From Gemmatimonadota bacterium (GTDB lineage: Bacteria; Latescibacterota; UBA2968; GCA-2709665): a stretch of DNA of 64,000 nucleotides. The DNA lies in assembly GCA_028874335.1 (NCBI GenBank), contig JAPPJY010000058.1:59309-123308 (forward strand), read 5' to 3'. The notes below the pieces were generated by a model. The model was not told the origin of the DNA and did no database searches. It saw only the letters and a program-made list of their open reading frames with translations. A program made the translations under genes and the position numbers. This document shows, one piece after another, positions 6,274 through 26,837 of this stretch. Each line of letters starts with the position of its first letter. Position 1 is the stretch's first letter.

Positions 6274-6360
6274 GCCCAGTTCGCACAAAATTCCCTTGAT
6301 GCGCGCCTGAAATGGTCTAAATTGCCTCGGATTCGGACCCCAAAACCACCGGATCGAATT

Positions 6361-8694: not shown

Positions 8695-9627
8695 ATGGTT
8701 GTCGGCTTTTTGCTTGGCGCCTATTCTATCGTTGGAAACGACGCGATTCAGACCCTTGGAACCTTTCTCAGCTCCAACGCCAGACGCCCCTGGTGGGTGC
8801 TCTGGATCTTTGCCTGCAGTATTCTGATCGTCGTCCTCGTCTACGGGTGGTGGATGCACGACGACGTCTCCTACGGCAGGCTGGAGAAGATCCCCGAACC
8901 CGATCAGTGGACCTGGATCTACTGCGTCCCTCCTTTCGTCCTGCTCCTCCTGACACGTTGGGGCATCCCGGTGAGCACCACGTTTCTCACCCTGACGATC
9001 TTTGCGCCAAAAGCCCTGCCGGCCATGCTGGTCAAATCACTCGCCGGTTACGCGACCGCGTTCCTGGCCGCCATTCTGATCTATCGATGGGTCACCAGTG
9101 GCTTCGAGTCCCGCTTTCACAAAACAGAGGGGCCCACGAGCGGCTGGTGGGTCGTGGCGCAGTGGTGTTCGACCGGCTTCCTGTGGAGCCAGTGGCTGAT
9201 ACAGGACCTGGCCAATATCTTCGTCTTCCTTCCTCGCAGCCTCACGGCGGAATGGTTCTTTCTATCGATGGTGGTTATGCTGGCGCTGCATGCCATTATC
9301 TTTTACAACCACGGCGGCGCCATTCAGAAGGTGGTGCTCACCAAGACCAACACAACCGACATCCGGTCGGCGACATTCGTCGACCTGATCTACGGCATCG
9401 TTCTGTTGCTGTTCAAAGAGGTCAGCAAACTTCCGATGAGCACGACGTGGGTCTTCGTCGGCCTCCTGGCCGGGCGGGAGATCGCGGTCGCCTGGAATCA
9501 GCGGCACCGCAGCCGCAGGGAAGTGACGCGGCTGGTCGCGACGGATTTCGCGAAAATCACCGGCGGACTGCTCGTCAGCATCGCCCTCGCCTATCTCCTG
9601 CCCGAATTGCAGGCGCTATTTGGCTGA
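8695..9627 (+). CDS. Polytopic membrane protein, distantly PiT (phosphate/sulfate permease)-like
   Basis: Hydrophobic helices. GNDAIQTLGTFLSSN and PMSTTWVFVGLLAGREIA resemble the PHO4/PiT signature GANDxxN...STTH. The start is uncertain (ATG 8695 or GTG 8677). Confidence 0.55.
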   Translation: MVVGFLLGAYSIVGNDAIQTLGTFLSSNARRPWWVLWIFACSILIVVLVYGWWMHDDVSYGRLEKIPEPDQWTWIYCVPPFVLLLLTRWGIPVSTTFLTLTIFAPKALPAMLVKSLAGYATAFLAAILIYRWVTSGFESRFHKTEGPTSGWWVVAQWCSTGFLWSQWLIQDLANIFVFLPRSLTAEWFFLSMVVMLALHAIIFYNHGGAIQKVVLTKTNTTDIRSATFVDLIYGIVLLLFKEVSKLPMSTTWVFVGLLAGREIAVAWNQRHRSRREVTRLVATDFAKITGGLLVSIALAYLLPELQALFG

Positions 9628-11875: not shown

Positions 11876-11987
11876 TGGCTGCAATCCTCCCACCTGCCCT
11901 ACGATACCTATATCTGAATCCCTCACTCGGTCGTACGTTTAGTTCATGCCCGCATCTAAAACGAGAATCAAAGGTCGTTAGCGCTGG

Positions 11988-12068
11988 TTACGTACCTGCG
12001 GGCTCATAGGCAAGGCCGAATACTGTATCGGTCATTCGGCACCTGAAGTCGTTGCTGAGCGAGTATGC
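11988..12068 (-). pseudogene. Relic 3' end of an hsdR gene
   Basis: Translates ...LSNDFRCRMTDTVFGLAYEPAGT*. The live HsdR C-terminus is ...DKDFKRWMADTVFGLAYDPVGT* at 12807-12887. There is no upstream hsdR body. Confidence 0.7.
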
Positions 12069-12253
12069 AAACGGGCGGCACGGAACCAGATGTCGAGTAT
12101 TCGCCCTTCGGTCGCGATTGCATGTAGTCGTGATATCCCCTGGCCCGGCGACTCGACTCTGTCCATTAGAGAACTGAAGGACCAAGCTCTGCCGCTCCGA
12201 TGACGTTGAGGACCTCCCGCATCGCGCAGCTGAATTCCGCCAGGCACCTATCG

Positions 12254-12475
12254 TCAAACCGTAACGGTGTAGTGGTTCACCACAACCGATGTCGACTTCA
12301 AATCACCATCCCGCTCAAGTTCGTCTAGATACAACCTGATCGCTTCGGCAACGAGGTCACGCACCTCATCCTCCGTTGCACCCGCCACGCCGATCCCCGG
12401 AAGTTCCGGTACATACGCCCCGTACGAGCCGGGGCCGTAATTCTCTACTATGACAAGATACTCAGTCTGTGCCAT
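12254..12475 (-). CDS. hicB: HicB-family antitoxin (UPF0150 fold)
   Basis: MAQTEYLVIVENYGPGSYGAYVPELPGIGVAGATEDEVRDLVAEAIRLYLDEL. Overlaps the hicA stop. Confidence 0.8.
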   Translation of the reverse strand: MAQTEYLVIVENYGPGSYGAYVPELPGIGVAGATEDEVRDLVAEAIRLYLDELERDGDLKSTSVVVNHYTVTV

Positions 12476-12680
12476 CTTCATCCCCGATGTCAATTTCTTT
12501 CAATCCAGCCTGTTTGAGTATCTGGCTCAATGTACCAGCCTTGATGTCCGCGTTGCGATTTCCAGCTACCACGACGATGCCGCGCTTGGTCGAATGACGC
12601 ATCACCCGGTGGCTCCCGCGACGGCGCACTTCGTGCCATCCGTCCTTTCGCAATTCTCTCAATAGTTCCCGAATCTTCAT
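12462..12680 (-). CDS. hicA: HicA-family mRNA interferase toxin
   Basis: MKIRELLRELRKDGWHEVRRRGSHRVMRH...IKAGTLSQILKQAGL is a canonical HicA/YcfA pattern. Confidence 0.85.
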   Translation of the reverse strand: MKIRELLRELRKDGWHEVRRRGSHRVMRHSTKRGIVVVAGNRNADIKAGTLSQILKQAGLKEIDIGDEDGTD

Positions 12681-12806
12681 GCGGCAATTTCACGGCAGTC
12701 GGTTCGAATGCGAATTACATTACCTGTGAACTGTGTGTACAGGATTTTCCCGATGGGTTCGGTCGGAATTAAGCCACAGAATGAGCACACAACTGCCTGA
12801 CCGACG

Positions 12807-15800
12807 TTACGTGCCAACCGGATCGTACGCAAGGCCGAACACTGTATCAGCCATCCAGCGCTTGAAGTCCTTGTCGTCCATATATCGCTTGAACAGTTCG
12901 GTGTCATCCTTCATCACTCCGGTCATCACGCGCAGCAGCGCCTTGTCGTGCTCGATGCGCGCATTCTGCCGATCGGAGTTCACCCGGGCGTTTCGGAACG
13001 CGGTGTCGGCGGCGACGCGGGCCGGAATGGTTTCTGTGATGAGCTGCTTGACGCGGTCTCTATCCTCCCATTCGATATCTCCGAAATGTTCGTTGAATAC
13101 GCGAAGTATGTTTGAGAGTCGGTCCAATTCCAGCTCCTGTTGATGCCCTCCCCCTGAACCCGGTACCGGATCGATCTCGGCATCTTCGTCCTCTAACAGG
13201 ATCTTTTGCATCGCCCGCTTCTCCACCCGGTAGCTGTCCAGGTCGATCGCATCGAGGATTCCCTTGGAAAGATCCTCTTCCTCGGGCGCCGGCAATTTCG
13301 GCACCAGGAAATTCAGGAAAATCGAACGCTTTTCCCATTCGGCAACATTGTACGGAAGGACGGATGAGAGAAAGGCGTACGTTCGCACGAATGCTTTGGC
13401 GTTGCCCTTGAATGCGACCTGGCCGTCTTCGTCCAGGTCGTGTCGATAGACCGCGACACAAACGTCCAGGATCGGATCGAGCAGGTCGCGTTCCACCCCA
13501 TCCAGATAGAGCCGCACAAATTCGTCGATCTGCGTTTCGGAATAGACCTGGGCGCCGTCCAGCTCGGCCTGCAGGTCGTGCAGCTTGTTCGGGTCGGTTT
13601 CGTCGGCCAGAATCGTCGTCTTGTAGAAGTCAGAAAACGCATCTTGAATCGTATCGGTGTCGTTGAGAAAGTCGAAAACGAACACGTCGTGTTTCTTCGG
13701 GTGGGCCCGGTTGAGGCGAGACAGCGTCTGCACGGCCTTGATGCCGGACAGCGTCTTGTCGACGTACATGGTGTGCAGCAGGGGCTCATCGTAGCCGGTC
13801 TGAAATTTGTCCGCGCACACCAGAAACCTGTACGGATCCTCCTGAAATCGCCTGGCGATCTGGGCCGAAGGCAGGCCGGTCAGTGACGCCTCGCTTACCC
13901 TGCCGCCGCCGAAATCATGTTCGCCGGAGAACGCGACCAGCGCCTCAAATTGGCTCTTGCGCTCCTTGAGATACTCGCGGATGGCATGATAGTACTGAAT
14001 CGCGCGCTCGATGCCGTTCGTGACCACCATCGCCCGCGCCGCGCCGCCGATCTTGCCCTGCTTCAGCACCTGGTCGTGGAAGTGGTCGACCATGATCTCG
14101 GCCTTCAGACGGATCGCGTGCCCACTGCCCTCCACGAAGCGACGCAGCTTCTTCTGCGCCTTCCGAGCGTCGAATTCGGGGTCGCCTTCGACCGTCTTCG
14201 CCAGCTTGTAGTAACTCGCCACAGGCGTATAGTGCGACAGTACGTCCAGGATGAATCCTTCCTGGATCGCCTGCTTCATGGTGTAGCTGTGGAAGGCGCG
14301 ATGCCGCACCGTACCGTCAGGCTGCGACTCCGGAGCGCCGAAGATCTCGAGCGTTTTATTCTTCGGCGTGGCGGTAAACGCGAAGTAGCTGGCGTTCGGC
14401 AGGAGCTTTCGCGACTCCATCAGACGGTTGATCCGGTCCTCAAACGTATCCTGATCGTCCTCTTCGCCCGCCTCCGACAGCGCCTGAGCCATCGCCGCGC
14501 TGGTGCGCCCCCCCTGGCTCGAGTGGGCTTCGTCGATGATGATGGCGAAGCGCTTCCCCCGTTGTTCATTGCCAATTTCGTCCAGAATGAACGGAAACTT
14601 CTGGACCGTGGAAATGATGATTTTCTTTCCGCTCTCGATAAACTCGCGCAGATCGCCCGAACGGTCGGCGTGTCCTACCGTGGCCGCCACCTGGGCGTAT
14701 TGCTTGATCGTGTCGCGAATCTGGCGGTCCAGGATGACCCGATCCGTGACGACGATGATCGAGTCGAAGACCGGAGCGTCGTCCTTCTCCAGCCCGATCA
14801 ACTGGTGCGCGAGCCAGGCGATGGAGTTGCTCTTGCCGCTGCCGGCTGAGTGCTGGATCAGGTATCGCTGACCGGCGCCGCGGTCGCCCGCGTCGGCCAG
14901 CAGTCGGCGCACCACGTCGAGTTGATGGTAACGCGGCCAGATCTGAGTCTTTCGACTCCTTCCGCTCTTTTCGTCCTTCGACGCCACTACCTGCGCGTAA
15001 TTCTCGAGGATGTTGGTTAGGCTCTCCCGGGTGAGCACTTCGCGCCAGAGATAGGCGATTGAAAGACCGTCCGGATTGGGCGGGTTACCCGCGCCGTCGT
15101 TCCAGCCGCGGTTGAAAGGCAGAAACCAGGAGGCCTTCCCCTTCAGATGCGTACAAAAACGCACCTCGCGTTCGTCCAACGCGAAGTGCGCGATGCAGCG
15201 CCCGAACTCGAACAGCTTCTCACGCGGGTTCCGGTCCTTTTTGTACTGCCAGACCGCATCGTCCACCGTCTGTTTGGTGAGGCTGTTCTTCAACTCGAAC
15301 GTGAACACCGGCAATCCGTTGACGAACAGCCCGATGTCCAGCGCCCGCTGTGCCTCGTCCCGGCTGTAGCGAAGCTGCCGCGTAACGGTAAACCGGTTCA
15401 GCTCGAACAATTCCTGCGCCTGCGGGTTGCCGGCCGAGGGCGTGCCGTAGAACAGCTCCAGGTTCAACGCCCCGTGCTTTATGCCGTTACGCAGCACGTC
15501 GATGGTGCCGCGCTTGCTGATTTCGCCCTGGAGACGGGTCAGAAATGCGCGCCGCACGGGACCGGCCTGACCTGGTAGGGGCGACCGGCCGGTCGCCCGT
15601 GCACCGTTGGTTGCCATTCCAACCGCGTCGGCGGCCTCCGGCTGCGTGGCGCGCAGGAATGCCGACAGTTGCGCCAGATCGACGCAGAACTCACGGTCAT
15701 AGTCGTGGTGATTACCGCAGCTCCAGCCGACACCGCCGTAACCGGCGGGCGGTTCTCCCACGGTGCCCGAAACAGGGGGCTCGCAGCCCTGGCCCGTCAG

Positions 15801-15851
15801 GGCGGCGCAAATCAGGCGTTCAAGCCCGCGTTCAGAGGTATCAGTGTTCAC
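12807..15851 (-). CDS. hsdR: Type I restriction enzyme R subunit
   Basis: 1014 aa with GTG start. Walker A HSAGSGKSNSIAW and DEAH box IIIDEAHSSQGG, with typical HsdR N- and C-terminal regions. It contains an in-frame REP palindrome at 15579-15598. Confidence 0.95.
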   Translation of the reverse strand: MNTDTSERGLERLICAALTGQGCEPPVSGTVGEPPAGYGGVGWSCGNHHDYDREFCVDLAQLSAFLRATQPEAADAVGMATNGARATGRSPLPGQAGPVRRAFLTRLQGEISKRGTIDVLRNGIKHGALNLELFYGTPSAGNPQAQELFELNRFTVTRQLRYSRDEAQRALDIGLFVNGLPVFTFELKNSLTKQTVDDAVWQYKKDRNPREKLFEFGRCIAHFALDEREVRFCTHLKGKASWFLPFNRGWNDGAGNPPNPDGLSIAYLWREVLTRESLTNILENYAQVVASKDEKSGRSRKTQIWPRYHQLDVVRRLLADAGDRGAGQRYLIQHSAGSGKSNSIAWLAHQLIGLEKDDAPVFDSIIVVTDRVILDRQIRDTIKQYAQVAATVGHADRSGDLREFIESGKKIIISTVQKFPFILDEIGNEQRGKRFAIIIDEAHSSQGGRTSAAMAQALSEAGEEDDQDTFEDRINRLMESRKLLPNASYFAFTATPKNKTLEIFGAPESQPDGTVRHRAFHSYTMKQAIQEGFILDVLSHYTPVASYYKLAKTVEGDPEFDARKAQKKLRRFVEGSGHAIRLKAEIMVDHFHDQVLKQGKIGGAARAMVVTNGIERAIQYYHAIREYLKERKSQFEALVAFSGEHDFGGGRVSEASLTGLPSAQIARRFQEDPYRFLVCADKFQTGYDEPLLHTMYVDKTLSGIKAVQTLSRLNRAHPKKHDVFVFDFLNDTDTIQDAFSDFYKTTILADETDPNKLHDLQAELDGAQVYSETQIDEFVRLYLDGVERDLLDPILDVCVAVYRHDLDEDGQVAFKGNAKAFVRTYAFLSSVLPYNVAEWEKRSIFLNFLVPKLPAPEEEDLSKGILDAIDLDSYRVEKRAMQKILLEDEDAEIDPVPGSGGGHQQELELDRLSNILRVFNEHFGDIEWEDRDRVKQLITETIPARVAADTAFRNARVNSDRQNARIEHDKALLRVMTGVMKDDTELFKRYMDDKDFKRWMADTVFGLAYDPVGT
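15579..15598. repeat. REP palindrome copy 1 (inside hsdR, in frame)
   Basis: gggcgaccggccggtcgccc, read as ...GARATGRSPLPG... in the HsdR N-terminal region. Confidence 0.9.
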
Positions 15852-17251: not shown

Positions 17252-17393
17252 TCGGCCACCTCTCTTTCGATTGTGTGCTCTTCCGTCGATTCATCAGCGT
17301 CCGCCAGGCGTCTGTGGGCAAAACGTAAACGTGTCGTCTTTCACCACAACCGAATCCGCCGATGTTGGTAGTGATTTTCTCAATCACCGCGTG

Positions 17394-18025: not shown

Positions 18026-18283
18026 ATGCTTACCTCCGCTGCAACTATGCGCTTTTCTGCAGGTTCATCAACGTCCGTCAGGTGTATGCGATCAAACCGT
18101 AAACGTGTTGTGGTTCACCACAACTGAATCGGCCGCCGTTGGCCGTGATCACACCTGTCCAAACACGGGTTTGATTAACTACGAAAGTCGCGAAATATAT
18201 GGCTGGAAAAATCGTCCATAAACGCGAACCAATGGCAACCTGGTCTCCATTGTCCGGGTCAAACCAGCACATAATCGCCACGA

Positions 18284-18406: not shown

Positions 18407-18434
18407 GTAGGGGCGACCGGCCGGTCGCCCCTAC
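18407..18434. repeat. REP palindrome copy 2 (28-nt perfect palindrome) overlapping the hsdS stop codon
   Basis: gtaggggcgaccggccggtcgcccctac. The hsdS TAG (18431-18433) lies inside the right arm. Confidence 0.9.
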
Positions 18435-19828
18435 GTGACTAGTTGCTCGCAAGAGTACTTATTTGTCGATTCGTCTTCCTCAGGCAGTTCAGCCGCCGCC
18501 TCGCGCACATCGAGCTTACCTGTGACGACATCGGCGATCAGGCGGGTGCGGTATTCCTGGACGAGAGCGATTTCTCGATTTGTTCGTTCGATCGCCTTTT
18601 CCAGCCCGCTCGTTTTCTCAGAAATCGCCTTGAGAATGGTTAACTGCTCTTCCAGAATTGGAAGAAGAACCGGGAACTTGCGCAGTGTGTTGCTATTGGT
18701 GGATGCAAGGTTCGTCGTCTTCTTTGCGGTGAATTCGAAATATGCCCGCCCGTGGATTGAACCCATTAGCCCAACCAGAAACTCCGGGCTCAGCAGCCCC
18801 CGCCGACATCGTACCGCAAAGATGTGATTCTGGTGTAAACATCCTGGGATCTCATCTCGCCAGACACACCCACGCCCAAGTTTGTCGATATCTCCGCCTT
18901 CGGTCATCAAAACGTCGCCGGGCAACAAGGCAGCCCGAGCCGCTTCATCCCGGGGAACATCGATAGACTTGACCTGCGATAGGTCCAAACAACCTGCCTG
19001 AACATTAGCAACTCGCAGATATGGTCTAGATATCGTTTGCGTACTCCTATAATCTTTGCCCAACGTGAGACCGGTTTGAACTTGTGCGACATCCTTGAGG
19101 CGGAGAAACTGCCAATGCTCCGGCACATCGCCCAGCCACTCCACAACGGAGGCCTCGTAGGCCGGATAGGGCTGGCCGGTTCGGACGTCGATTTGGCCCG
19201 TAACGGCCTGGTGGATGATGGCCTGCTTCTGCTCCTCCAGCAGCGCAATCAGCTTCTGCTTGGCGCGGATGTAGCGCTGGATGCGCCGGTCGGCGTGGTC
19301 GAGGAAACGGACGATAGCGGACTGCTCGGGAACTGGTGGGAGTGGCAGGTACGAACGGGCGAGACTTTCGTAGTCTATGTTTTGGCCCTGACGAATACCT
19401 GTGACGAATAGCGACAGATTCTCGATGTACGGGCGTGATTTAAACACTCTGGCAAGATAAGCGTGGTGATCTGGAACACGTGGACATAGAATCGTGTATG
19501 CAGGGCTGATTATTCCTTGTTCTCGCGCAAACTCGATACCTCCTTGAAACGATCTCAAACTAATTACAAAGTCGCCGACGCGTACAATCTTGAGCAATTC
19601 GAGATCCTTCAATGCAAGCACCGTGCGATTCTCGTACTTCTCCTTTCGCACAACTCCTTTGGTCTGCGTAGCTGCCAGTAATGGCTCGTTAGGGTAACCC
19701 TTTTCGCTTCGCTGGACAAGAAGACTCTTCGTTCTCCTAAGTTCCCAATGCTTGGGCACCTTCCCCAGCCAATCGACGCCGGTGTCCATATAGTCAGGAT
19801 AGGGTTTGAGATTCGAGGTTATCATCAT
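18431..19828 (-). CDS. hsdS: Type I restriction-modification S (specificity) subunit
   Basis: 465 aa with two target-recognition regions, each followed by a conserved helical repeat (...IALLEEQKQAIIHQAVTGQIDV... and ...IALVQEYRTRLIADVVTGKLDV...). Confidence 0.9.
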   Translation of the reverse strand: MMITSNLKPYPDYMDTGVDWLGKVPKHWELRRTKSLLVQRSEKGYPNEPLLAATQTKGVVRKEKYENRTVLALKDLELLKIVRVGDFVISLRSFQGGIEFAREQGIISPAYTILCPRVPDHHAYLARVFKSRPYIENLSLFVTGIRQGQNIDYESLARSYLPLPPVPEQSAIVRFLDHADRRIQRYIRAKQKLIALLEEQKQAIIHQAVTGQIDVRTGQPYPAYEASVVEWLGDVPEHWQFLRLKDVAQVQTGLTLGKDYRSTQTISRPYLRVANVQAGCLDLSQVKSIDVPRDEAARAALLPGDVLMTEGGDIDKLGRGCVWRDEIPGCLHQNHIFAVRCRRGLLSPEFLVGLMGSIHGRAYFEFTAKKTTNLASTNSNTLRKFPVLLPILEEQLTILKAISEKTSGLEKAIERTNREIALVQEYRTRLIADVVTGKLDVREAAAELPEEDESTNKYSCEQLVT

Positions 19829-19831
19829 CTA

Positions 19832-20419
19832 TCACCATTGTAGGGGCGACCGGCCGGTCGCCCGTGTGCCGATTGGATCCCGGCCGTCCCTATTGGCAGG
19901 ATTCTCCGGGTCTTTCGACCATCCGGGCGGGTTAACCGCGATGTATTGCCGAATCCAATACAGCGTGGATTCGTTTCTGATAATGTGTTCGTAGTAATTG
20001 CGCTGCCATACCAATGCGCCGGGAGTGCCGCGCATGGCGTTGATGCGTTTGGTTACGGCAGATTTGAATCCAGCCATCATGGCGCCGAGTGACTTCGGTC
20101 GCGGACCGCCACGGGCGACCGGCCGGTCGCCCCTACGGCTTTCGTCGGCTATTATGACGATGCCGTGAACATGGTTGGGCATGACAACCCAGGCATCCAG
20201 TTCAATCTCGCTGCGGATCCATGCGGATTGTAGCCACTCCTCTTCGACTATCCAGCCCAATTCGTTCAGCGCCATCTCACCATCTTTCACTTCGCCGAAC
20301 AGTAATTCCCTCCCGACTGTGCAGACGGTGATAAAATATGCGCCTGCTCTCGAATAGTCGTTGTCGCGCAATCGGATCGCGCGACGGCGACGTATCTCTG
20401 GATCGCATGAGGCGTTCAT
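19832..20419 (-). CDS. REP-associated tyrosine transposase (RAYT, IS200/IS605-like Y1 HUH family)
   Basis: Start at MNASCDPEIRRRRAIRLRDNDYSRAGAYFITVCT. HUH motif PNHVHGIV and catalytic-Tyr region RNYYEHIIRNE. REP palindromes lie inside the ORF (20113-20132) and at its 3' end (19844-19863). Confidence 0.8.
   Translation of the reverse strand: MNASCDPEIRRRRAIRLRDNDYSRAGAYFITVCTVGRELLFGEVKDGEMALNELGWIVEEEWLQSAWIRSEIELDAWVVMPNHVHGIVIIADESRRGDRPVARGGPRPKSLGAMMAGFKSAVTKRINAMRGTPGALVWQRNYYEHIIRNESTLYWIRQYIAVNPPGWSKDPENPANRDGRDPIGTRATGRSPLQW
19844..19863. repeat. REP palindrome copy 3
   Basis: gggcgaccggccggtcgccc, encoding the RAYT C-terminal ATGRSP. Confidence 0.9.
20113..20132. repeat. REP palindrome copy 4 (inside the RAYT ORF, in frame)
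   Basis: gggcgaccggccggtcgccc, read as RGDRPVARG between the HUH and Tyr motifs. Confidence 0.9.
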
Positions 20420-20590
20420 TATGCCCTCGGAACTTCGCACAGCAACGATTCCATCTCTTTCTCCACCAACAGGATACCCGCACGTATTTCTTCCAGAGTC
20501 CGCATCGGCTGGGGCTCGTAACAGTACAGGGTGAAGCTGATTTCGTATCCGATTCTTACGCTGTCCGGTTGATACCAAGCTTCAGCGCCC
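20419..20590 (-). pseudogene. Relic 3' end of an hsdM gene with its natural stop
   Basis: Own translation: ...AEAWYQPDSVRIGYEISFTLYCYEPQPMRTLEEIRAGILLVEKEMESLLCEVPRA*. The live HsdM has ...AADAWHQTDSVKIGYEISFTRYFYKPQPMRTLEEIGADILALEKETEGLLGDLPLV. The TAA overlaps the RAYT ATG (TAATG). Confidence 0.75.
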
Positions 20591-20653
20591 GACGCCTGGC
20601 ACTCGCGCCGTCGGCTTTCAATTGGACCGAACTATTATTGTTTTCCTTGCTCT

Positions 20654-20995
20654 CTACAGGTATTCAACAGCCGAGTCGTTGCCATGTTGTGTCGGCTCTT
20701 GGATCTTTCGCGGAATCTTCGAAGAGAATTTCTGTCGCAAGGAATCTATAAATGATCGACTCTCCTCGAGCGATCGGTCAATCTCATTCTGATGATCGAA
20801 ATAGTAAGCCAGTGCTGCGTACACATCCGCAAGAGTTATATCGTAATCATTGGCGATTTCGTCGGCGCTCCTGCCCAGCCGCTCGTGCCAGATGATGATA
20901 TTCTCCACGGTAATTCGACGACCGGCTATACGTGGTTTACCGCCTGAAATGCCCGGGGTGATCTCGATATGTTGATTCAGAGTTTCCGTTGTCAT
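20654..20995 (-). CDS. DUF433 domain protein (copy 4, classical subtype)
   Basis: Start at MTTETLNQHIEITPGISGGKPRIAGRRITVENIIIWHERLGRSADEIANDYDITLADVYAALAYY. The upstream part of the 171-aa ORF is a REP/RAYT fragment. Confidence 0.8.
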   Translation of the reverse strand: MTTETLNQHIEITPGISGGKPRIAGRRITVENIIIWHERLGRSADEIANDYDITLADVYAALAYYFDHQNEIDRSLEESRSFIDSLRQKFSSKIPRKIQEPTQHGNDSAVEYL

Positions 20996-21043
20996 TTCCG
21001 TTTCTCCTGAGTTCGGCGCCCGTCGCGGCGTCAATGCAGGCGC

Positions 21044-21063
21044 GGGCGACCGGCCGGTCGCCC
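21044..21063. repeat. REP palindrome copy 5
   Basis: gggcgaccggccggtcgccc. Confidence 0.9.
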
Positions 21064-21160
21064 CTACGGCGATGGGACCCCGGCCATCCCAAAAGACAGA
21101 ATTCTCCCAGCCTTCCGACCATCTGGCCAGGCTATATGCGTTGTATCGCCGAATCCGCCG
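21044..21160 (-). repeat. RAYT 3'-end fragment plus REP (F1)
   Basis: Translates IRRYNAYSLARWSEGWENSVFWDGRGPIAVGATGRSP. The RAYT C-terminus is IRQYIAVNPPGWSKDPENPANRDGRDPIGTRATGRSP. Confidence 0.7.
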
Positions 21161-21245
21161 ACGGTTCACCGTATAACTGAAATTCCAGCATACGCGGAAT
21201 GCCTTCGGCTCAGCCGTCCCGATGTTCTGCTGACCTGTTCTGCGC

Positions 21246-21424
21246 TTATTTGCGTATTCGCGCGGCCATTGCCTCCAGCACGGGGTCGGAATACCGCTTC
21301 GAATTGAACCACGTTACCATTTCCTCGGCAGTCATGCCGGCGGTCTCCGCGGTTATGCGGGCGCGGGCCTGGCGCATGAATTCGACACAGTCGAATTTCT
21401 TTTTCTTGGAGTGTCATCAGTCAT
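21246..21424 (-). pseudogene. Small-protein paralogue A1, 1-nt deletion after codon 5
   Basis: ATGACTGATGACAC-tccaagaaaaagaaattcgac here vs -ccggaagaaaaagaaattcgac in A4. The downstream frame reads KKKKFDCVEFMRQARARITAETAGMTAEEMVTWFNSKRYSDPVLEAMAARIRK*. An internal ATG at 21377 could still give a 43-aa product. Confidence 0.65.
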
Positions 21425-21506
21425 GGATGATCTCCTCTGGCCTGCGAACGTCTATAGCGGCGTATCCCTCTTGACGATTGACGTCGTTGTAGGCTCTAAT
21501 GCGCCG
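21417..21506 (-). pseudogene. Relic 3' end of a PIN gene
   Basis: RRIRAYNDVNRQEGYAAIDVRRPEEIIHD* vs the HsdM-PIN C-terminus RRIRAYNEVNRQNGYPAIDIRTPEEIVHD*. The same ATGACTGA stop/start overlap with the following A gene is present. Confidence 0.7.
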
Positions 21507-21551
21507 GAATTCTTCTATGCAGGATAAGGCATCGGGCCAGGGATCATGGAG

Positions 21552-21800
21552 TCAACCAAAGAGAGTTTCCCGTACTTCGCGTTTGGACAGACCAAGAAAC
21601 TCCGCCACGTCGGCGATGATTCCATCAAGCGTCCCGACTCGCACATCCCGATGCCTCGGTACTGTCACGCTGTGCCGGTTACTGTCGATTGTCAACGTCA
21701 CAGTCATGTGGTTGCCTTTGGTTCGCGTCACGAGGTAGCCATAGTGACGCGTGAGCCGCCTGGCAACCTCGTTTCCAGCGAGGTCGCGGGGCAGTTTCAT
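21552..21800 (-). CDS. HicA-family toxin (second, divergent copy)
   Basis: MKLPRDLAGNEVARRLTRHYGYLVTRTKGNHMTVT...HSVTVPRHRDVRVGTLDGIIADVAEFLGLSKREVRETLF. Confidence 0.7.
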   Translation of the reverse strand: MKLPRDLAGNEVARRLTRHYGYLVTRTKGNHMTVTLTIDSNRHSVTVPRHRDVRVGTLDGIIADVAEFLGLSKREVRETLFG

Positions 21801-22024
21801 ACCGCGATGGCCTCCACTCTGACCAAATGCAGTCTGATCACTCGCGGCATGTTCTCGCCGTCAAAATGACAACGCACTGCGTCTCGTACCATAGCCTTCA
21901 GGTCGTTCCAGTCTTCTCCCTGCGTGAAGATGCTATGCCCGAGCGCTCTGGCGTCGTATCCGCCTTCAACCGCTTCAGTTACCTCGAAAATGATCTCGCT
22001 CTGTCTCATCTGTATATCCTCCAT
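21797..22024 (-). CDS. HicB-like antitoxin (short form)
   Basis: SEIIFEVTEAVEGGYDARALGHSIFTQGEDWNDLKAMVRDAVRCHFD...VIRLHLVR. Overlaps the HicA start by 4 nt (ATGA). The true start may be the M at 22009. Confidence 0.65.
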   Translation of the reverse strand: MEDIQMRQSEIIFEVTEAVEGGYDARALGHSIFTQGEDWNDLKAMVRDAVRCHFDGENMPRVIRLHLVRVEAIAV

Positions 22025-22130
22025 GTGTCTTGGCCATTCTTAGCATCAGGATTCACCGGGTCTTCCGACCATCCGGTCGCGTTATCCGCGATGTATTGCC
22101 GAATCCGATCCGACGTGGATTCGTTCCGGA
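22025..22130 (-). repeat. RAYT 3'-end fragment without palindrome (F3)
   Basis: Translates ESTSDRIRQYIADNATGWSEDPVNPDAKNGQD vs the RAYT NESTLYWIRQYIAVNPPGWSKDPENPANRDGRD. Confidence 0.65.
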
Positions 22131-22134
22131 TTCA

Positions 22135-22275
22135 CCTATGCGGGCGAACGGCCGGTCGCCCCTACGGCGATGGGATCCTGGCCATCCCAATCGGCAGGAT
22201 TTTCCGGGTTTTCCAACCATCTGGCCGGGTGATCCGCGAGGTTTTGCCGAATCCAATCTGGTGTTTATGCGTCTG
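22135..22275 (-). repeat. RAYT 3'-end fragment plus REP (F2)
   Basis: Translates WIRQNLADHPARWLENPENPADWDGQDPIAVGATGRSPA*. Confidence 0.7.
22142..22161. repeat. REP palindrome copy 6 (one mismatch)
   Basis: gggcgaacggccggtcgccc. Confidence 0.85.
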
Positions 22276-22351
22276 GTTCCGCCCGATTCGTTTGAACGAA
22301 CGTGCAACCCCTTGTTTCTCGACCCTTGCTCGTAAGGTCAACGATCAGGGT

Positions 22352-22549
22352 TCACCCTCTTTTGCCTTCGTCCAATTCGCGCAAAGGCACCGCCAGTCGT
22401 TCCAGAACAGGGTCGTCATAACGATACGTACGATAGTATTGGATTCGCTCCGCATGGCTCATGCCGGCTGTTTCCTCGGCAATCCTCGCACGGACTTCCC
22501 GCACAAAGCGGTTGCAGTCGAACCTCTCGCCAGCGGCTTCATGGGTCAT
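22352..22549 (-). CDS. Small-protein paralogue A2 (candidate antitoxin-like protein)
   Basis: MTHEAAGERFDCNRFVREVRARIAEETAGMSHAERIQYYRTYRYDDPVLERLAVPLRELDEGKRG. It shares FDC..R.vRaRI.eE.AGM...E...DPVLE with A1, A3 and A4. Confidence 0.6.
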   Translation of the reverse strand: MTHEAAGERFDCNRFVREVRARIAEETAGMSHAERIQYYRTYRYDDPVLERLAVPLRELDEGKRG

Positions 22550-22607
22550 AACGGAATCTCCCGCGTCCATACGCAGCCAAAAGCCTTCGTTCCGTTCCCG
22601 GTTTTCG

Positions 22608-22847
22608 TTATTTATCGCAATCGGAGCCGGACCGGCCGCCGTCGTTTGCCCCATCGTCCTGCCAGGGTCGCACAACCCTGGACTTCGGAATGCGAGCGAA
22701 GTAGGGATCCTTGCCGACAGCCGCATTGAGCCGACGGCGCCGCTCTTCAGGGGACATTCCCGCCAGTTCCGCGTTGATCCGGTCCCGGACCTCGCGCGTC
22801 CATTTTATGCAGTCGAAAGCCTTTGTGTTGCTCTCACGCTTCTTCAT
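22608..22847 (-). CDS. Small-protein paralogue A3
   Basis: MKKRESNTKAFDCIKWTREVRDRINAELAGMSPEERRRRLNAAVGKDPYFARIP... Confidence 0.6.
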   Translation of the reverse strand: MKKRESNTKAFDCIKWTREVRDRINAELAGMSPEERRRRLNAAVGKDPYFARIPKSRVVRPWQDDGANDGGRSGSDCDK

Positions 22848-22914
22848 TTGCAAGCTCCATCCGGCTGCGCATGTCCACCAGGTGGTGCCCAAAGCGCTTC
22901 GGTTTCCCTTCGGT

Positions 22915-23130
22915 TCAGCTGTCGGAACTGTCTGTTGGCCCGTCCTGCGTGGATTTGCGTATTCGCGCGGCCATTGCTTCCAGCACGGGGTCGGAATACC
23001 GTTTGGAATTGAACCACTCAACCATTTCCTCGGCAGTCATGCCGGCGATTTCGGCGGTAATTCGGGCGCGGGCCCGGCGCATGAATTCGACAGAGTCGAA
23101 TTTCTTTTTCTTCCGGGTGTCATCAGTCAT
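22915..23130 (-). CDS. Small-protein paralogue A4; its start overlaps the HsdM-PIN stop
   Basis: MTDDTRKKKKFDSVEFMRRARARITAEIAGMTAEEMVEWFNSKRYSDPVLEAMAARIRKSTQDGPTDSSDS. The ATG at 23130-23128 lies in the sequence cATGACTGAtg, where the hsdM-PIN TGA is 23125-23123. Confidence 0.7.
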   Translation of the reverse strand: MTDDTRKKKKFDSVEFMRRARARITAEIAGMTAEEMVEWFNSKRYSDPVLEAMAARIRKSTQDGPTDSSDS

Positions 23131-23584
23131 GGACGATTTCCTCCGGCGTACGAATGTCAATAGCGGGGTATCCGTTTTGACGATTGACCTCGTTGTAGGC
23201 TCTGATACGCCGCCAATTCACCATGTGCCTGAAATTCCAGCTAACCAGGACGTCGGCTCTGGCGAGAGTCGCGGTGGCAATGTGCAGCGCGTCGGCCCGG
23301 TTGGCGCCACCTATGGCGCCAGCCGTTATGTAGGCATCGGCAAGCTCTCTCGCTTCTCTCGAAACGGCGAGTATTTCCGTGTGTTCCGAGGGAACGGCGC
23401 TGGTCGCCTGCCTGACGGGGAGCGAAGCATCCGCGAGTTCATCCAGGGTGATGTTCGAGATGAGCATCGTGGCGTCCCCCTGGCGAAAAACCTCGAACAG
23501 CCGCGTCGATTGTTCGCGGAATTCATCGTCATGGCAACCGCCGATCACCGAGGTATCCACGTAGATGCGCGGCTTGCCGTACAC
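23123..23584 (-). other. PIN (VapC-like) domain segment of the HsdM ORF; possible internal GTG start at 23584
   Basis: (V)YGKPRIYVDTSVIGGCHDDEFREQSTRLF...NRADALHIATATLARADVLVSWNFRHMVNWRRIRAYNEVNRQNGYPAIDIRTPEEIVHD. The conserved acidic positions are D in YVDTS, E in DDEF, D in ADALH and D in ADVLV. Confidence 0.75.
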
Positions 23585-25564
23585 AGCCGGCGGTTCGCGC
23601 ACCAGCGGCAGATCGCCGAGCAGCCCCTCAGTCTCTTTCTCCAGCGCCAGAATATCCGCCCCAATTTCCTCCAGGGTCCGCATGGGCTGGGGCTTGTAAA
23701 AATACCGTGTAAAACTGATTTCGTAGCCGATTTTTACGCTGTCCGTTTGATGCCACGCGTCAGCGGCGTAGGGCAGGACCTCTCGCTGCAGAAACGCTTC
23801 GATGCCGCCTTCTTCCTGTAGTGGAATCTGCTCGGTGTCGCGCAGGTCGGTGTCCGGTTCGTACTCGACCACGACGGGCCTGCCGTCGACAGTAGCCTCG
23901 AACCGGCCGCGCAGCGGGTCGGCTTCCGTGCCTCTCTTGTGTACCCTTTTTATCACTGGCGACGCGGTTTCGCTTCGTTCGCAAGTCTCCTTTAACTTCT
24001 TGATTTCGGAGGCCTTATATGCACGGTTGGGGTCAATTTCTTCGAGCCGAAGCGGCCTTTCGACTGTCACCTTCCAGTATCCGAAGGCGGCGTTGTCGAA
24101 GATCTTGCTCTGTTCAGTTTCCTCGAAGGCCAGAAACGTGTCGCAGATGCGCCGGACGTCCTCCTCGCCGAGTTCACAGTTCTTCTTGCCCAGGTTCTTG
24201 CGCAGCGGCCGGTACCACTCGGTGGCATCGATCAACTGCACCTTGCCCCGGCGATGCTCCGGCTTCCGGTTGGTGATCACCCACACGTAGGTGGCGATGC
24301 CGGTGTTGTAGAACATATTGAGCGGCAGCGAGACAATCGCCTCCAGCCAGTCGTTCTCGATGATCCAGCGCCGGATATTGCTCTCTCCCTGCCCGGCGTC
24401 GCCCGTGAACAGCGAACTGCCGTTATGCACCTCGGCGATGCGGCTGCCACCCTCCTTCATCTTGGAGAGTTTGTTAGCCAGAAAGAGCATCTGGCCGTCG
24501 CTGGACCGGGTAACCAGCGAATACTCGGGATCGTCGGCGTGCTCGATCACAAAGCGCGGGTCCCGCATTTCCTTTTTGCCGCCCATGCGCTCCAGATCGG
24601 TCTTCCAACTCTTCCCGTAGGGCGGATTCGAAAGCATGAAGTCGAACTCGCGGGACGGGAAGGCGTCGTTGGCCAGGGTGGAATGCTCAGGGCCGCCGAC
24701 GATGTTGTCGGCCGCGTCTCCTTCACCCTTCAGGAGAAGGTCGGCCTTGCAGATGGCGTAGGTCTCGGCGTTGATTTCCTGGCCATACAGGTGGGTGGAG
24801 ACCTGCTCACCGCGCTCGGCTGCGAGTTGCTGGAGCACCTCTTCAGCCACGGTCAACATGCCGCCTGTACCGCACGCGCCGTCGTAGATCAGGTAGGTGC
24901 TGGATGTAATTTCGTCAGCGACGGGCAGGAAGACCAGCTTCGCCATCAGCGTCACCGCATCGCGCGGCGTCCAGTGTTCCCCCGCCTCCTCGTTGTTCTC
25001 CTCGTTAAAGCGCCGGATCAGCTCCTCGAAGATCGTCCCCATGCCGTGGTTGTCCAGGCCAGGGTGTCTGACCGAACCATCGCCGTTGTGCACCGGATCC
25101 GGGCTCAGGTTGACGTCCGGAGAAGTGAGTTTTTCGATCAGCGTACCCAACGCATCGGCCCTGGAAAGACGGGGTACCTGGTTTCGGAATTCGAAGTTTT
25201 CAAGGATGTCCTGCACGTTTGGCGAGAACCCGTCCAGCCAGGCCCTGAAGTCGGCCTCGAGCTGCTGGCGGTTTGCACGGGCGCGCAGGTCGCGCAGAGT
25301 GAACCTGGAAGTATTGTAAAAGTCCTGTCCCGCAGCCTGTCTCAACGGCTCTTCCTGTTCGACCAAGCCGATTTGTTCGAGGTTTGCCTGCATGTCCAAA
25401 ACCGCCTGCTTGCTATCCTCCAGTACCGCGTCCAGCCTGCGCAGTACGGTCATCGGCAGGATCACGTCGCGGTACTTGCCGCGGACGTACAGGTCGCGGA
25501 GGACGTCGTCGGCGATTCCCCAGATATAGTTCGCGATCCAGTTCAGGTTGGCGTTGGTTGTCAT
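23123..25564 (-). CDS. hsdM: Type I R-M methyltransferase subunit HsdM fused in frame to a C-terminal PIN domain
   Basis: 813 aa. HsdM N-terminus MTTNANLNWIANYIWGIADDVLRDLYVRGKYRDVILPMTVLRRLD, AdoMet region YDGACGTGGML and motif IV NPPYGK. There is no stop before the PIN-like 153-aa tail. Confidence 0.9.
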   Translation of the reverse strand: MTTNANLNWIANYIWGIADDVLRDLYVRGKYRDVILPMTVLRRLDAVLEDSKQAVLDMQANLEQIGLVEQEEPLRQAAGQDFYNTSRFTLRDLRARANRQQLEADFRAWLDGFSPNVQDILENFEFRNQVPRLSRADALGTLIEKLTSPDVNLSPDPVHNGDGSVRHPGLDNHGMGTIFEELIRRFNEENNEEAGEHWTPRDAVTLMAKLVFLPVADEITSSTYLIYDGACGTGGMLTVAEEVLQQLAAERGEQVSTHLYGQEINAETYAICKADLLLKGEGDAADNIVGGPEHSTLANDAFPSREFDFMLSNPPYGKSWKTDLERMGGKKEMRDPRFVIEHADDPEYSLVTRSSDGQMLFLANKLSKMKEGGSRIAEVHNGSSLFTGDAGQGESNIRRWIIENDWLEAIVSLPLNMFYNTGIATYVWVITNRKPEHRRGKVQLIDATEWYRPLRKNLGKKNCELGEEDVRRICDTFLAFEETEQSKIFDNAAFGYWKVTVERPLRLEEIDPNRAYKASEIKKLKETCERSETASPVIKRVHKRGTEADPLRGRFEATVDGRPVVVEYEPDTDLRDTEQIPLQEEGGIEAFLQREVLPYAADAWHQTDSVKIGYEISFTRYFYKPQPMRTLEEIGADILALEKETEGLLGDLPLVREPPAVYGKPRIYVDTSVIGGCHDDEFREQSTRLFEVFRQGDATMLISNITLDELADASLPVRQATSAVPSEHTEILAVSREARELADAYITAGAIGGANRADALHIATATLARADVLVSWNFRHMVNWRRIRAYNEVNRQNGYPAIDIRTPEEIVHD

Positions 25565-25578
25565 CGGGATTCCCTGGA

Positions 25579-25598
25579 GGGCGACCGGCCGGTCGCCC
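25579..25598. repeat. REP palindrome copy 7, 14 nt upstream of the hsdM ATG
   Basis: gggcgaccggccggtcgccc. The minus strand reads ...gggcgaccggccggtcgccc-tccagggaatcccg-ATG. Confidence 0.9.
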
Positions 25599-25667
25599 CT
25601 ACAAGAGAGAAAGGCGAATCACCCGTGAGGGCGTCGCCTCGGTCGAAGAATTCACCCACCCCTGGCT

Positions 25668-26837
25668 TCACCCCCGGTTCCCTCCTCCCCATGCGGACGA
25701 GAATTGATCGCCGTCCTGGAACCGGCTGGGACGGAACGGATGCAGATCGAACGCGGGCGTCCGGCCGAGGATGACGTCGGTCAACGAATCGGCGATCGGC
25801 GGGCCCAGCTTGAACCCGTGCCCACTCCCGCCGAAGAAGGCATAGTAGCCCTCCAGCCCCGGCTCGGGTCCGACCAGAGGGTGCCAGTCGTCCGTGATGG
25901 TATAGACCGATGCCCAGCCCTTCACGTATTCCCCCTGCCTGAACGCGGGCACCCGTTCGAAGGTCCCGGACTCGATGCGCCGCCGCGTGGGCCCGTCCAG
26001 GTCCGGATCGTACGCGTCCACGTCCATCGGCTCCACCTCTTTGGGAAAACTCAGGCCGGCAAGCAGCCCGTTTTCGCCGTCGGGTCGAAAATAGACCCGG
26101 AGATTGGGATCGGAGACCACGGGAAACCGTCCGAATCCCTCCGGCAATCGCAATACCAGATCGCTCTCCCGGCTCCATCGCAGCGAATAGTTGAAGCCCG
26201 CGGACAAGCCCATATGTCGACCCCAGGGACCTGCCGCGTTGATCACCAGGTCCGTCCGGATTTCGCCGGCATCCGTCTCCACCCCCGTCACGCGATCTCC
26301 GGTCAGCCGAATTCGCGTTGCCCCCACCCCCTCGTAGCACGTCAGCCCCCAGTCCGAGGCTCGCGTCACCAGATTCCTGACCGTCCTGACCGGGTCCGCG
26401 TACCCGGACGCGGGTTCGTAGATGCCTGAGATAATCCCGTCCGTGTTTACACCCGGTACGAGTTCCCCGATCTCATCGGTTTCCACTTCCACGGCCCGGG
26501 TGTGATTCCGCTGCTCGGCCTCCAGCACCGCCAGGCCCGCGGCGGCGGTATGCTCACCCAGAAGACAGATATAACCCGTATTGCGAAAGCCGCAGTCACC
26601 CCCCAGCGCCTCCTGTCCGTTCGAGAACATCTCCAGCGCCTTCATGGACAACCGGATGGTCATATCGTTCGAGTAGAAGGTGCGGATCACGGCGGCCGAA
26701 TGGCCCGTGCTCACGGCGGCCAGCGATCGTTTTTCCAGGAGCACGACATCACCCAGACCCTTTTTTGCGAGAAAATGGGCCACGCTGGCACCCATGATTC
26801 CCCCGCCGATCACGACGGCGTCTGCCACCCTTACCAT
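25668..26837 (-). CDS. FAD-dependent oxidoreductase (DAO/sarcosine-oxidase-beta-like)
   Basis: 389 aa. Dinucleotide fold ADAVVIGGGIMGASVAHFLAKKG. Confidence 0.8.
   Translation of the reverse strand: MVRVADAVVIGGGIMGASVAHFLAKKGLGDVVLLEKRSLAAVSTGHSAAVIRTFYSNDMTIRLSMKALEMFSNGQEALGGDCGFRNTGYICLLGEHTAAAGLAVLEAEQRNHTRAVEVETDEIGELVPGVNTDGIISGIYEPASGYADPVRTVRNLVTRASDWGLTCYEGVGATRIRLTGDRVTGVETDAGEIRTDLVINAAGPWGRHMGLSAGFNYSLRWSRESDLVLRLPEGFGRFPVVSDPNLRVYFRPDGENGLLAGLSFPKEVEPMDVDAYDPDLDGPTRRRIESGTFERVPAFRQGEYVKGWASVYTITDDWHPLVGPEPGLEGYYAFFGGSGHGFKLGPPIADSLTDVILGRTPAFDLHPFRPSRFQDGDQFSSAWGGGNRG

Follow-up and report, generated by a model that had tools for sequence, protein, structure and literature searches.

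Two copies of the hsdM 3′ end around a mosaic of toxin-antitoxin-like genes in a type I restriction-modification locus

In the window analysed here (the whole stretch of DNA, 64,000 nucleotides long), the 3′ end of the methylase gene hsdM occurs once in a live gene and once as a relic downstream of a 3-kb block of toxin-antitoxin (TA)-like genes, and the question arises how this gene end came to be stranded there. The restriction system carrying the hsdM-PIN gene is from a sponge symbiont. The features that frame the block are the following:

23123..25564, minus strand: hsdM-PIN fusion gene, 813 aa (HsdM_N, N6_Mtase, C-terminal tail, PIN domain)
23606..23786, minus strand: live hsdM 3′ tail, upstream repeat copy, encoding ...AWHQTDSVKIGYEISFTRYFYKPQPMRTLEEI...EGLL (repeat search, MAFFT, blastn)
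23123..23599, minus strand: PIN (VapC-like) domain, type A (AF2, Foldseek, conserved acidic residues)
22915..23130, minus strand: A(a), 71 aa, partner of the type A PIN, putative antitoxin or regulator; its start overlaps the PIN 3′ end
20419..20608, minus strand: relic hsdM 3′ tail, downstream repeat copy, with a natural TAA overlapping the RAYT ATG
19832..20419, minus strand: RAYT (REP-associated tyrosine transposase) gene (NCBIfam REP_Tyr_transpos E = 1.5e-17, below cut-off; Pfam Y1_Tnp weak)
18431..19828, minus strand: hsdS (Pfam Methylase_S)

The repeat search of the window placed the two tail copies in direct orientation at 23606-23786 and 20428-20608 (family D8), with a length of 181 nt, an identity of 76% and a spacing of 3178 nt. 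Pairwise alignment by MAFFT showed that they are collinear, and their similarity was significant by blastn (82% over 134 nt, E ~1e-32) as well as by tblastn with the live tail as query (E = 3e-22 for the relic). The original observation of two copies of about 170 nt of the hsdM 3′ end in the same orientation was thus borne out, and so was the natural stop ascribed to the relic: read in the hsdM frame, it consists of 58 open codons (AEAWYQPDSVRIGYEISF...LLCEVPRA, then the stop), and its TAA (20421-20419) overlaps the RAYT ATG (20419-20417) as TAATG. A GAGG Shine-Dalgarno-like motif for RAYT lies within the last codons of the relic.

Sites without the insert were found in relatives for both hsdM and hsdR. 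In genome G013, RAYT follows immediately on an unfused hsdM, and this stretch is collinear with the relic and RAYT of the window over 743 nt (81.6% identity). Relic ends carry natural stops that match live unfused genes: DEILRA, the stop and the RAYT start match G013, and the 3′ part of the G009 relic, ending in DEIIGDGRRS and the stop, has 91% nucleotide identity to the live end in G003. Judged by these sequence comparisons, the downstream tail copy is the displaced natural end of hsdM. The proposed ancestral order hsdM-RAYT-hsdS was not borne out as such: its two junctions exist only separately, and no genome shows all three genes in exactly that order. More distant relatives were found without RAYT, and the order in G058 is hsdM-HicB-like-hsdS-hsdR.

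The same signature had been claimed for hsdR, where a second direct repeat was located:

12807..15851, minus strand: hsdR (Pfam)
12806-12873, minus strand: live hsdR 3′ end, last 68 nt (repeat D11)
12462-12680, minus strand: hicA (Pfam HicA_toxin E = 5.6e-20)
12254-12493, minus strand: hicB (HicB_lk_antitox E = 4e-6)
11987..12054, minus strand: relic hsdR 3′ end, 78% identical to the live copy

Here hicA and hicB (12254..12680) are a cassette inserted behind hsdR. The relic and the DNA downstream of it are collinear with the live hsdR ends of G003, G007 and G013, and the empty site of G003, whose live tail and downstream DNA follow the window relic over 556 nt at 79.9% identity, substantiated the claim. 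Each of the two repeats aligns to one copy in genomes without the insert (G013 for hsdM; the three genomes just named for hsdR). The process was also recurrent, as supposed: within the genus, at least one relic tail was present in all nine fused genomes and in none of three unfused ones, with two relic tails in G001 and three in G016, and hicB 3′ ends likewise survive as relics, upstream of DUF433 cassettes. Within 6 kb downstream of 10 fused or PIN-linked loci of the genome collection, eight of them from other phyla, no extra tails were detected, a result that weighs against the displacement model set out below.

The product of the live gene was matched by Pfam to N6_Mtase (E = 4.5e-52) and HsdM_N (E = 7e-20), with PIN_3/PIN weak and below cut-off, and by PADLOC to MTase_I (E = 2.7e-237). 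Full-length relatives are present in nine genomes at 85-96% identity. The AF2 model of the PIN domain had a pLDDT of 91.3, its top 20 Foldseek matches were all PIN/VapC toxins (probability 1.0), and in alignment A2 residues D15 and D116 were invariant and E54 and D103 nearly so; by its predicted fold and conserved acidic active-site residues, the domain is a PIN (VapC-like) nuclease domain. Four PIN types, 50-63% identical, are carried on hsdM cores that are at least 90% identical, and the variable part starts near 23527, after YVDTSVIGGC, where identity drops sharply (oriented position ~4974). The family comprises 216 clusters at 90% identity from several phyla, among them Pseudohongiella and Thermoanaerobaculia, Acidobacteria and Longimicrobiales MAGs; in L080 and L081, hsdM and PIN are adjacent yet separate genes. 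HsdM-PIN thus occurs widely, its members bearing no annotation beyond "N-6 DNA methylase", and the idea that the insertion at this locus created the fusion was not sustained, since the fusion is an established family.

Each PIN type has its own small downstream A gene, so that the A type co-varies with the PIN type, and A is fused to PIN as a single ORF in L081 and L049. The model of A(a) consists of three helices (pLDDT 78); library searches gave no family match, and no recognisable DNA-binding or antitoxin fold or family was seen. PIN and A may form a putative toxin-antitoxin pair, which the co-variation and the fusion ORFs fit. VapBC type II systems share the PIN fold with its acidic residues, the small co-varying partner and the overlap of the partner start with the toxin end. 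Unlike in VapBC, the toxin gene comes first here, the partner is without a recognisable fold or family of that kind, and the toxin is fused to HsdM or, in the two loci named, to A itself.

Between A(a) and the relic tail, the block contains the following features:

22608..22847, minus strand: orphan A gene, 82% identical to the A behind the type D PIN of G007
22352..22570, minus strand: orphan A gene, 79-80% identical to the type B PIN partner (G008, G009, G012, G001 orphan)
22142-22272 (with REP) and 21994-22124, minus strand: two RAYT 3′-end fragments (repeats D2/D4; tblastn, RAYT residues 148-193)
21797..22024, minus strand: HicB-like gene, 75 aa, a name without support from any library
21552..21800, minus strand: HicA-like toxin gene (Pfam HicA_toxin E = 8.5e-7, 29.4 bits, cut-off 27)
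21420..21509, minus strand: PIN 3′-end relic, last 30 codons, 77% identical to the live PIN (repeats D5/D9)
21213..21451, minus strand: A pseudogene, type a, with one frameshift and a premature stop (tblastn match split across two frames)
21140-21193, minus strand: second PIN fragment, new to the earlier listing
21044-21174, minus strand: third RAYT 3′ fragment, with REP
20654..20995, minus strand: DUF433 gene (Pfam DUF433 E = 9.6e-19)

All elements originally listed between the tail copies were present (PIN, three A genes, RAYT fragments, HicB/HicA-like genes, PIN relic, A pseudogene, REP and DUF433). Their supposed arrival as a single cassette was not confirmed; with orphan A genes that match the PIN types of other strains and with relics of PIN and RAYT tails, the block is a multi-step mosaic of modules of differing origin. 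The adjacency of RAYT fragment and HicB-like gene is kept in G003, G004, G008 and G013. DUF433 directly followed by the relic tail is common to the window, G004 and G012; in G001, G008 and G009, other DNA separates the relic from a DUF433 gene upstream of it. Gene and family searches detected no integrase or complete transposase within the block.

The relic tails are themselves mosaics, and the window relic, as its shared segments indicate, is recombinant: its 5′ part and DUF433 are shared with G004, its 3′ part and RAYT with G001 and G013, and the switch point lies in the conserved core. Genome G001 has a live module of one type and, behind it, a complete orphan tail-PIN-A of another. The identity of this orphan PIN is 99% to the live PIN of G009 and 53% to that of G001 itself, so a whole older module was displaced.

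The stranded tail is probably explained by displacement, in which an hsdM 3′ end with PIN and A was recombined in; we infer this recombination from its end products. On the incoming DNA, an hsdM 3′ end unlike the resident one would already have been fused to a PIN RNase domain, with partner A behind it. The left join would have been ordinary homologous recombination inside the highly conserved hsdM, and the right join, upstream of the resident tail, may have been either illegitimate or the product of one Campbell-type crossover, in which a circular intermediate recombined within its tail; under either route the resident tail, RAYT and hsdS would have been pushed downstream. On their 5′ side the relics all end within a narrow range (23734-23809 in live-copy coordinates), which counts against purely illegitimate joins, as these would not predict clustering. 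The 3′ part of the relic was probably retained because it carries the RAYT ribosome-binding site and the stop-start overlap. Later exchanges, anchored in further short conserved segments (the tail core IGYEISFTRYFYKPQPMRT, both ends of PIN, the hicB tail and the RAYT tail with its REP), would have added, swapped and truncated modules until TA-like genes, orphan A genes and gene-end relics made up the present 3-kb mosaic. HsdM-PIN with A would then behave genetically like a methylase-tethered toxin with a putative cognate neutraliser. Against the displacement model, the window relic is 72-88% identical to every other tail, so the event is old and no tail stands out as that of donor or recipient. 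In the contigs of the sole run with the locus at full identity, where rare forms would be hidden, no intermediate, circle or deletion variant was found.

An unlikely explanation, which nevertheless survives best beside displacement, is insertion with long target duplication, whereby some 150-190 bp of the resident hsdM tail were duplicated on both sides of the insert and later diverged; it overlaps with the displacement model and may be the same phenomenon at another level. Such insertion at restriction-modification (R-M) loci was reportedly described by Nobusato and colleagues in 2000. The direct repeats of the window (181 nt at hsdM, 68 nt at hsdR) exceed the 30 bp of the definition in Furuta, Abe and Kobayashi 2010 (PMC2853133), and as in that work there is one copy in the empty-site genome and an insert without integrase or transposon ends. 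In G001, G009 and G016, moreover, the relic core is closest to the live copy of the same genome (93-98%), so that gene conversion or in-situ duplication fits as well as displacement. In contrast, the published inserts were chosen to contain both R and M genes, and the repeats are at least 90% identical in the tables (44/46 and 417/423 positions, for example); here R-M genes receive the insert, which brings PIN, A, HicAB-like genes and DUF433, the tail copies are only 76-82% identical, and one of them lies in a live gene with a new C-terminal domain. The G001 orphan tail, joined to a PIN of the G009 type, also speaks against duplication of the resident tail, as do the live tails of the fused genes, which carry fusion-specific 3′ sequence, while the relics carry natural stops of two kinds.

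Still less probable is site-specific or element-driven capture, with the hsdM tail as attachment site for a recombinase such as RAYT acting on REP-like hairpins. RAYT and the REPs are a REP/RAYT system, in that a Y1 HUH homologue stands beside genome-wide palindromic REPs (52 copies in the genome versus 0 in the control). Seven of the 52 lie within this 10-kb island, RAYT stands directly behind the relic, RAYT tail and REP fragments occur at several module borders, and the relic 5′ limits fall within ~75 nt of each other. Against this, no REP was found at either border of the 3178-nt repeat unit, leaving a role of RAYT and REPs in the tail duplication unsupported; the longest identical run between the tail copies is ~13 nt (by eye, in the MAFFT alignment), boundaries vary among relic classes, the hsdR and hicB relics have no motif in common with the hsdM tail, and fused loci in other phyla have PIN-A without RAYT. 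Y1 HUH transposases, moreover, are not known to generate long duplications when they insert.

Chance similarity or an assembly artefact, conceivable for a metagenome-assembled genome of 96 contigs with 7% estimated contamination, was refuted by the blastn significance and the in-frame relic, by a separate 4605-nt Logan contig of run X1 that covers 19700-23854 with zero differences (its reads are not independent of the window if X1 is the source sample, as it may be), and by the same architecture in the closed one- or two-contig genomes G007, G008, G009, G012 and G014.

The locus has a close genetic parallel in the orphan C-terminal toxin/immunity modules of Rhs and CdiA, where a Salmonella orphan of one serovar is the main module of another (Koskiniemi et al. 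2014, PMC3967940). In both cases a conserved body carries a variable C-terminal toxin domain with a small co-varying cognate gene directly downstream, orphan fragments retain a conserved upstream coding piece without a start, an orphan in one genome is the main module elsewhere (G001 and G009), and orphan partner genes occur without a toxin. The differences are that the variable part starts inside PIN, ~24 codons past the linker, and not at a demarcation motif; that live-relic homology is lower than the 95% over 522 bp in Salmonella; and that the carrier is the cytoplasmic DNA methyltransferase of a type I R-M system. Pfam and PADLOC detected HsdM_N and N6_Mtase in this carrier and no domain for secretion or delivery, which precludes action of the toxin between cells; the locus is genetically like a polymorphic toxin locus, not a member of that class.

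Many defence and TA genes are known inside restriction-modification operons. Examples are PrrC in EcoprrI and the accessory genes of type I operons (Payne et al. 2024, bioRxiv 10.1101/2024.01.29.577857) and PIN toxin-antitoxin genes within hsd operons (Matelska et al. 2017, PMC5499597). The present locus resembles them in that TA-like and PIN genes are nested among hsdM, hsdS and hsdR in arrangements that vary between close relatives. In the consulted portions of these two papers, gene-end relics are not described as traces that embedding leaves behind, nor is a translational fusion of PIN to HsdM or type switching with orphan modules.

Taken as a whole, the reading of HsdM-PIN-A as a counterpart of polymorphic toxin systems that works inside the cell, as part of a type I R-M enzyme, is tentative and rather doubtful. 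Under it, the PIN RNase would be tethered to the methylase and checked by A. An attack on the methylase complex by a phage anti-restriction protein would, by analogy with PrrC, set the RNase off as an abortive-infection backstop. Recombination at the conserved hsdM tail would exchange one PIN/A type for another; modules displaced in this way would persist as silent cassettes, as in G001, and orphan A genes would be anti-addiction insurance permitting the next swap. In R-M genes generally, the conserved 3′ ends would serve as portable homology arms through which defence cargo enters operons without a recombinase.

The locus and its relatives form a readable record, in which each arrival strands the end of the gene it hits and empty sites persist in sister genomes, and this record speaks for recombination that uses conserved gene ends as anchors rather than for a dedicated mobile element. 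The locus further brings to light a family of methylases with a putatively switchable PIN toxin domain and a matching partner gene. HsdM-PIN suggests that restriction is physically coupled to a second, RNase-based layer of defence, which is testable with ordinary laboratory strains and phages.

The 3′ end of hsdM was found twice in direct orientation, at 20428-20608 and 23606-23786 (181 nt, 76% identity, spacing 3178 nt in the repeat search), as the original prediction had stated. The alignment of the two copies proposed there as a check was collinear and gapless, and blastn between the live tail (the hsdM 3′ end inside hsdM-PIN) and the relic tail (the second, downstream copy) returned 134 nt at 82% identity with E about 1e-32. 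The window lies on contig C37 of a metagenome-assembled genome (5.4 Mb, 96 contigs); the runs containing it are sponge metagenomes, and its close relatives carry the label Candidatus Latescibacterota. Every gene discussed is on the minus strand, in the following gene order:

25564-23123, minus strand, hsdM-PIN, first in gene order and followed by the 3-kb block
20608-20419, minus strand, relic hsdM tail, after the 3-kb block
20419-19832, minus strand, RAYT (REP-associated tyrosine transposase)
19828-18431, minus strand, hsdS, followed by RHH/DUF433 cassettes
15851-12807, minus strand, hsdR, followed by hicA and hicB
12054-11987, minus strand, relic hsdR tail, after hicA and hicB

Translated in the hsdM frame, the relic tail reads AEAWYQPDSVRIGYEISFTLYCYEPQPMRTLEEIRAGILLVEKEMESLLCEVPRA followed by a stop, and its TAA overlaps the RAYT ATG, as predicted. 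Differences between the live and relic tails were distributed 9/7/17 over codon positions 1/2/3; of the codon changes, 14 were synonymous and 15 non-synonymous, a pattern that fits allelic divergence and neutral decay alike. The relic also contains a 28-codon mini-ORF (20419-20505, MRTLEEIRAGILLVEKEMESLLCEVPRA and a stop) which terminates at the TAATG overlap and may provide translational coupling into RAYT. A GAGG motif lies in the last codons of the relic, about 8 nt ahead of the RAYT ATG; together with the stop-start overlap it would serve RAYT, a simple candidate reason for the retention of the relic tail.

The inventory of genes and fragments between the two tails was correct as originally described, with two amendments. 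The fourth copy of A, the small gene overlapping the PIN stop, was indeed frameshifted and carried a premature stop as well. In the hicB/hicA-like pair, HicA scored above the Pfam threshold, but the name "HicB-like" had no support in any library. The three A genes and the HicB-like gene had no match in Pfam (even with the limit raised to E = 10), NCBIfam or PADLOC, and no Foldseek match was obtained with the A model (best E = 3.5).

The assembly holds up across the repeat block. A Logan contig built independently from sponge run X1 showed 0 differences over 19700-23854; X1 is possibly the source sample of the window, so the reads behind this contig are not independent. The same layout was also seen in closed genomes. 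No joint between the repeat copies, as expected of excision or deletion forms, was present in the contigs of X1, the run with the locus at 100% identity. On window positions 19700-25700, sponge runs X2 and X4 yielded related strains from other samples with differing joints within the block, such as a contig skipping 21297-21692, indicating that the cassette array is structurally polymorphic in natural populations. These joints were not used as evidence of excision, because they derive from related strains with other mosaics or from REP-linked contig ends.

In each of 14 related genomes, a 19-kb locus surrounding the orthologous hsdM was mapped using the proteins of the window, and empty sites were found for both genes. 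In relative G013, hsdM is unfused, ends in DEILRA and a stop, and leads directly into RAYT; this end with RAYT is collinear with the relic and RAYT of the window over 743 nt (81.6%). For hsdR, where the same signature had been proposed, the live gene end of G003 and its downstream DNA are collinear with the hsdR relic and downstream DNA of the window over 556 nt (79.9%), and shorter stretches were obtained in G007 and G013. Each of the two relics is thus a natural gene end that was displaced, in agreement with the original proposal.

The arrangement was also recurrent. Among the 12 genomes of the genus with this hsdM, at least one relic tail was present in each of the nine PIN-fused genomes (G000, the genome of the window, and G001, G004, G007, G008, G009, G011, G012 and G014), compared with none of the three unfused ones (G003, G006 and G013). 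The relics of G008 and G014 were weak matches (E = 0.001-0.006), that of G014 lying in front of RAYT. Three relic tails, one following an hsdS 5′ fragment, were observed in G016, from another genus of the same family. In 80 loci taken from the genome collection, 10 of them fused or PIN-linked (8 from other phyla), no second tail was found within 6 kb; recurrent stranding is documented only within this Latescibacterota family.

In the G016 locus (L042, oriented positions 5597-6337 and 7452-9560), one relic hsdM tail was fused in frame to an unknown 246-aa ORF; this may represent an HsdM fusion that carried another C-terminal domain and was displaced. Between the relics and hsdS lay an ORF of 702 aa.

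Relic stops were of two natural kinds, each also found in live unfused genes: DEILRA with a stop, overlapping RAYT, and DEIIGDGRRS with a stop, the ending seen in G003 and G006. In its 3′ part, the G009 relic shared 91% nucleotide identity with the live end of G003. In the window, the 5′ part of the relic and DUF433 are common to G004 (with collinearity as far as oriented position 7969), the 3′ part and RAYT are common to G001 and G013 (starting at oriented position 7948), and ancestry switches in a conserved core encoding IGYEISFT. The G001 and G009 relics are 100% identical in the 5′ part and core and differ at their 3′ ends. Their common core shares 98% identity with the live copy of G009. 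From these mosaic relics it follows that the hsdM tail is a recombination substrate used repeatedly; gene conversion between live tail and relic probably also occurs.

Stranded ends were observed for a third gene. A 54-nt repeat comprising the last 12 codons and stop of hicB (SVVVNHYTVTV and a stop) occurs at 12236-12289, 17300-17353 and 18074-18127; the two extra copies are relics, each lying 50-100 nt ahead of a DUF433 gene (the genes at 17251 and 18025). Seven relatives likewise have this element in front of DUF433 genes.

The hicAB cassette itself occupied three positions across the R-M loci: behind hsdR (G000, G008), ahead of hsdM (G011, G013) and in the hsdS-hsdR gap (G057). Its coordinates are 12254-12680 in the window and, as oriented locus positions, 2357-2780 in the G011 locus (L030) and 12870-13191 in the G057 locus (L032); hicA is partial in G057, and locus L043 has hicB only.

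In the G001 locus (L034, oriented positions 8488-9500), three tandem junctions, each of a RAYT 3′ end, a REP and the first ~27 hsdS codons, preceded the real hsdS. Gene starts, like gene ends, can therefore be stranded.

The PIN domain is genuine: modelled with AF2 from an alignment of 10 sequences, it reached a pLDDT of 91.3, its top Foldseek PDB matches were all PIN/VapC toxins, and the acidic residues were conserved in the alignment. A PDB sequence search with the domain gave no real match, identification being by fold comparison only. Four PIN types (A to D, 50-63% identity) were found on hsdM cores sharing at least 90% identity, with a sharp identity break near 23527, after YVDTSVIGGC, and partial recovery at the PIN C-terminus WNFRHMVNW.

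Gene A co-varied with the PIN type. In the window, A(a), the partner of its own type A PIN, is followed by two orphan A genes, one matching the type D partner (82%) and the other the type B partner (79-80%) of other strains. Behind its live module, G001 has a complete orphan made up of tail, PIN and A. The orphan PIN shares 99% identity with the live PIN of G009 and 53% with the live PIN of G001 itself, indicating that a newer module displaced an older one.

What was observed are end products: a live tail and a stranded one with cargo between them, empty sites, orphans that equal the main modules of other strains, and segments of discordant ancestry. From these we infer the recombination steps. 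On the left side, incoming DNA would pair with conserved hsdM; on the right, it would be joined upstream of the resident tail, either illegitimately or through one crossover in which a circular intermediate recombines inside the tail. The block would afterwards be reshuffled as repeated conserved segments exchange with one another.

Long target duplication in situ is a live rival, perhaps the same process under another name. The repeats of the window agree structurally with the published form of such insertion (PMC2853133), but the cargo does not, and they are far less identical than the published repeats. A mechanism driven by RAYT/REP is unlikely: the 20-nt palindrome GGGCGACCGGCCGGTCGCCC has 52 genome copies (up to 1 mismatch; 0 for the reversed control) and is enriched in this island (7 of the 52, within 10 kb), but neither border of the repeat unit has a REP, and on this ground RAYT/REP was rejected as the main agent of tail duplication. 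With 52 copies genome-wide, REP is not confined to this island.

One palindrome copy (15579-15598) lies in frame inside hsdR (…ATGRSPL…), and hsdR has 38 codons more in the window than in G004.

Insertion of Streptococcus ICEs into hsdM, which involves serine integrases, 2-8 bp repeats and gene disruption, is a different phenomenon. The HsdM-PIN locus matches Rhs/CdiA orphan modules (PMC3967940) in genetic architecture; it works like such a locus but is not a member, since its carrier is without a delivery domain. PIN toxin-antitoxin and other defence genes embedded in type I R-M operons are known (PMC5499597; bioRxiv 10.1101/2024.01.29.577857). The literature portions retrieved in the search contained no account of the HsdM-PIN fusion, its type switching, or hsdM 3′-end or other gene-end relics as embedding footprints.

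The original interpretation, in which a cassette with its own hsdM 3′ end was recombined in, was largely supported, except that the fusion was not created by this event. HsdM-PIN already occurs far beyond this locus: a database search with residues 640-813 returned 216 clusters, whose proteins are about 812-870 aa long and have N6_Mtase and HsdM_N domains, the few named members being N-6 DNA methylase or type I restriction enzyme M protein. Fused hsdM-PIN was also found in metagenome-assembled genomes labelled Pseudohongiella, Thermoanaerobaculia, Acidobacteria and Gammaproteobacteria.

In locus L080 (Longimicrobiales) and locus L081 (Thermoanaerobaculia), hsdM ends at a stop of its own and a separate PIN gene comes next. 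PIN and A form a single ORF in L081 (7997-8713, 239 aa), just downstream of the hsdM stop, and in L049 of an Acidobacteria metagenome-assembled genome (8656-9423, 256 aa). Judged by the fused, adjacent and PIN-A ORF arrangements together, HsdM, PIN and A probably act as one complex.
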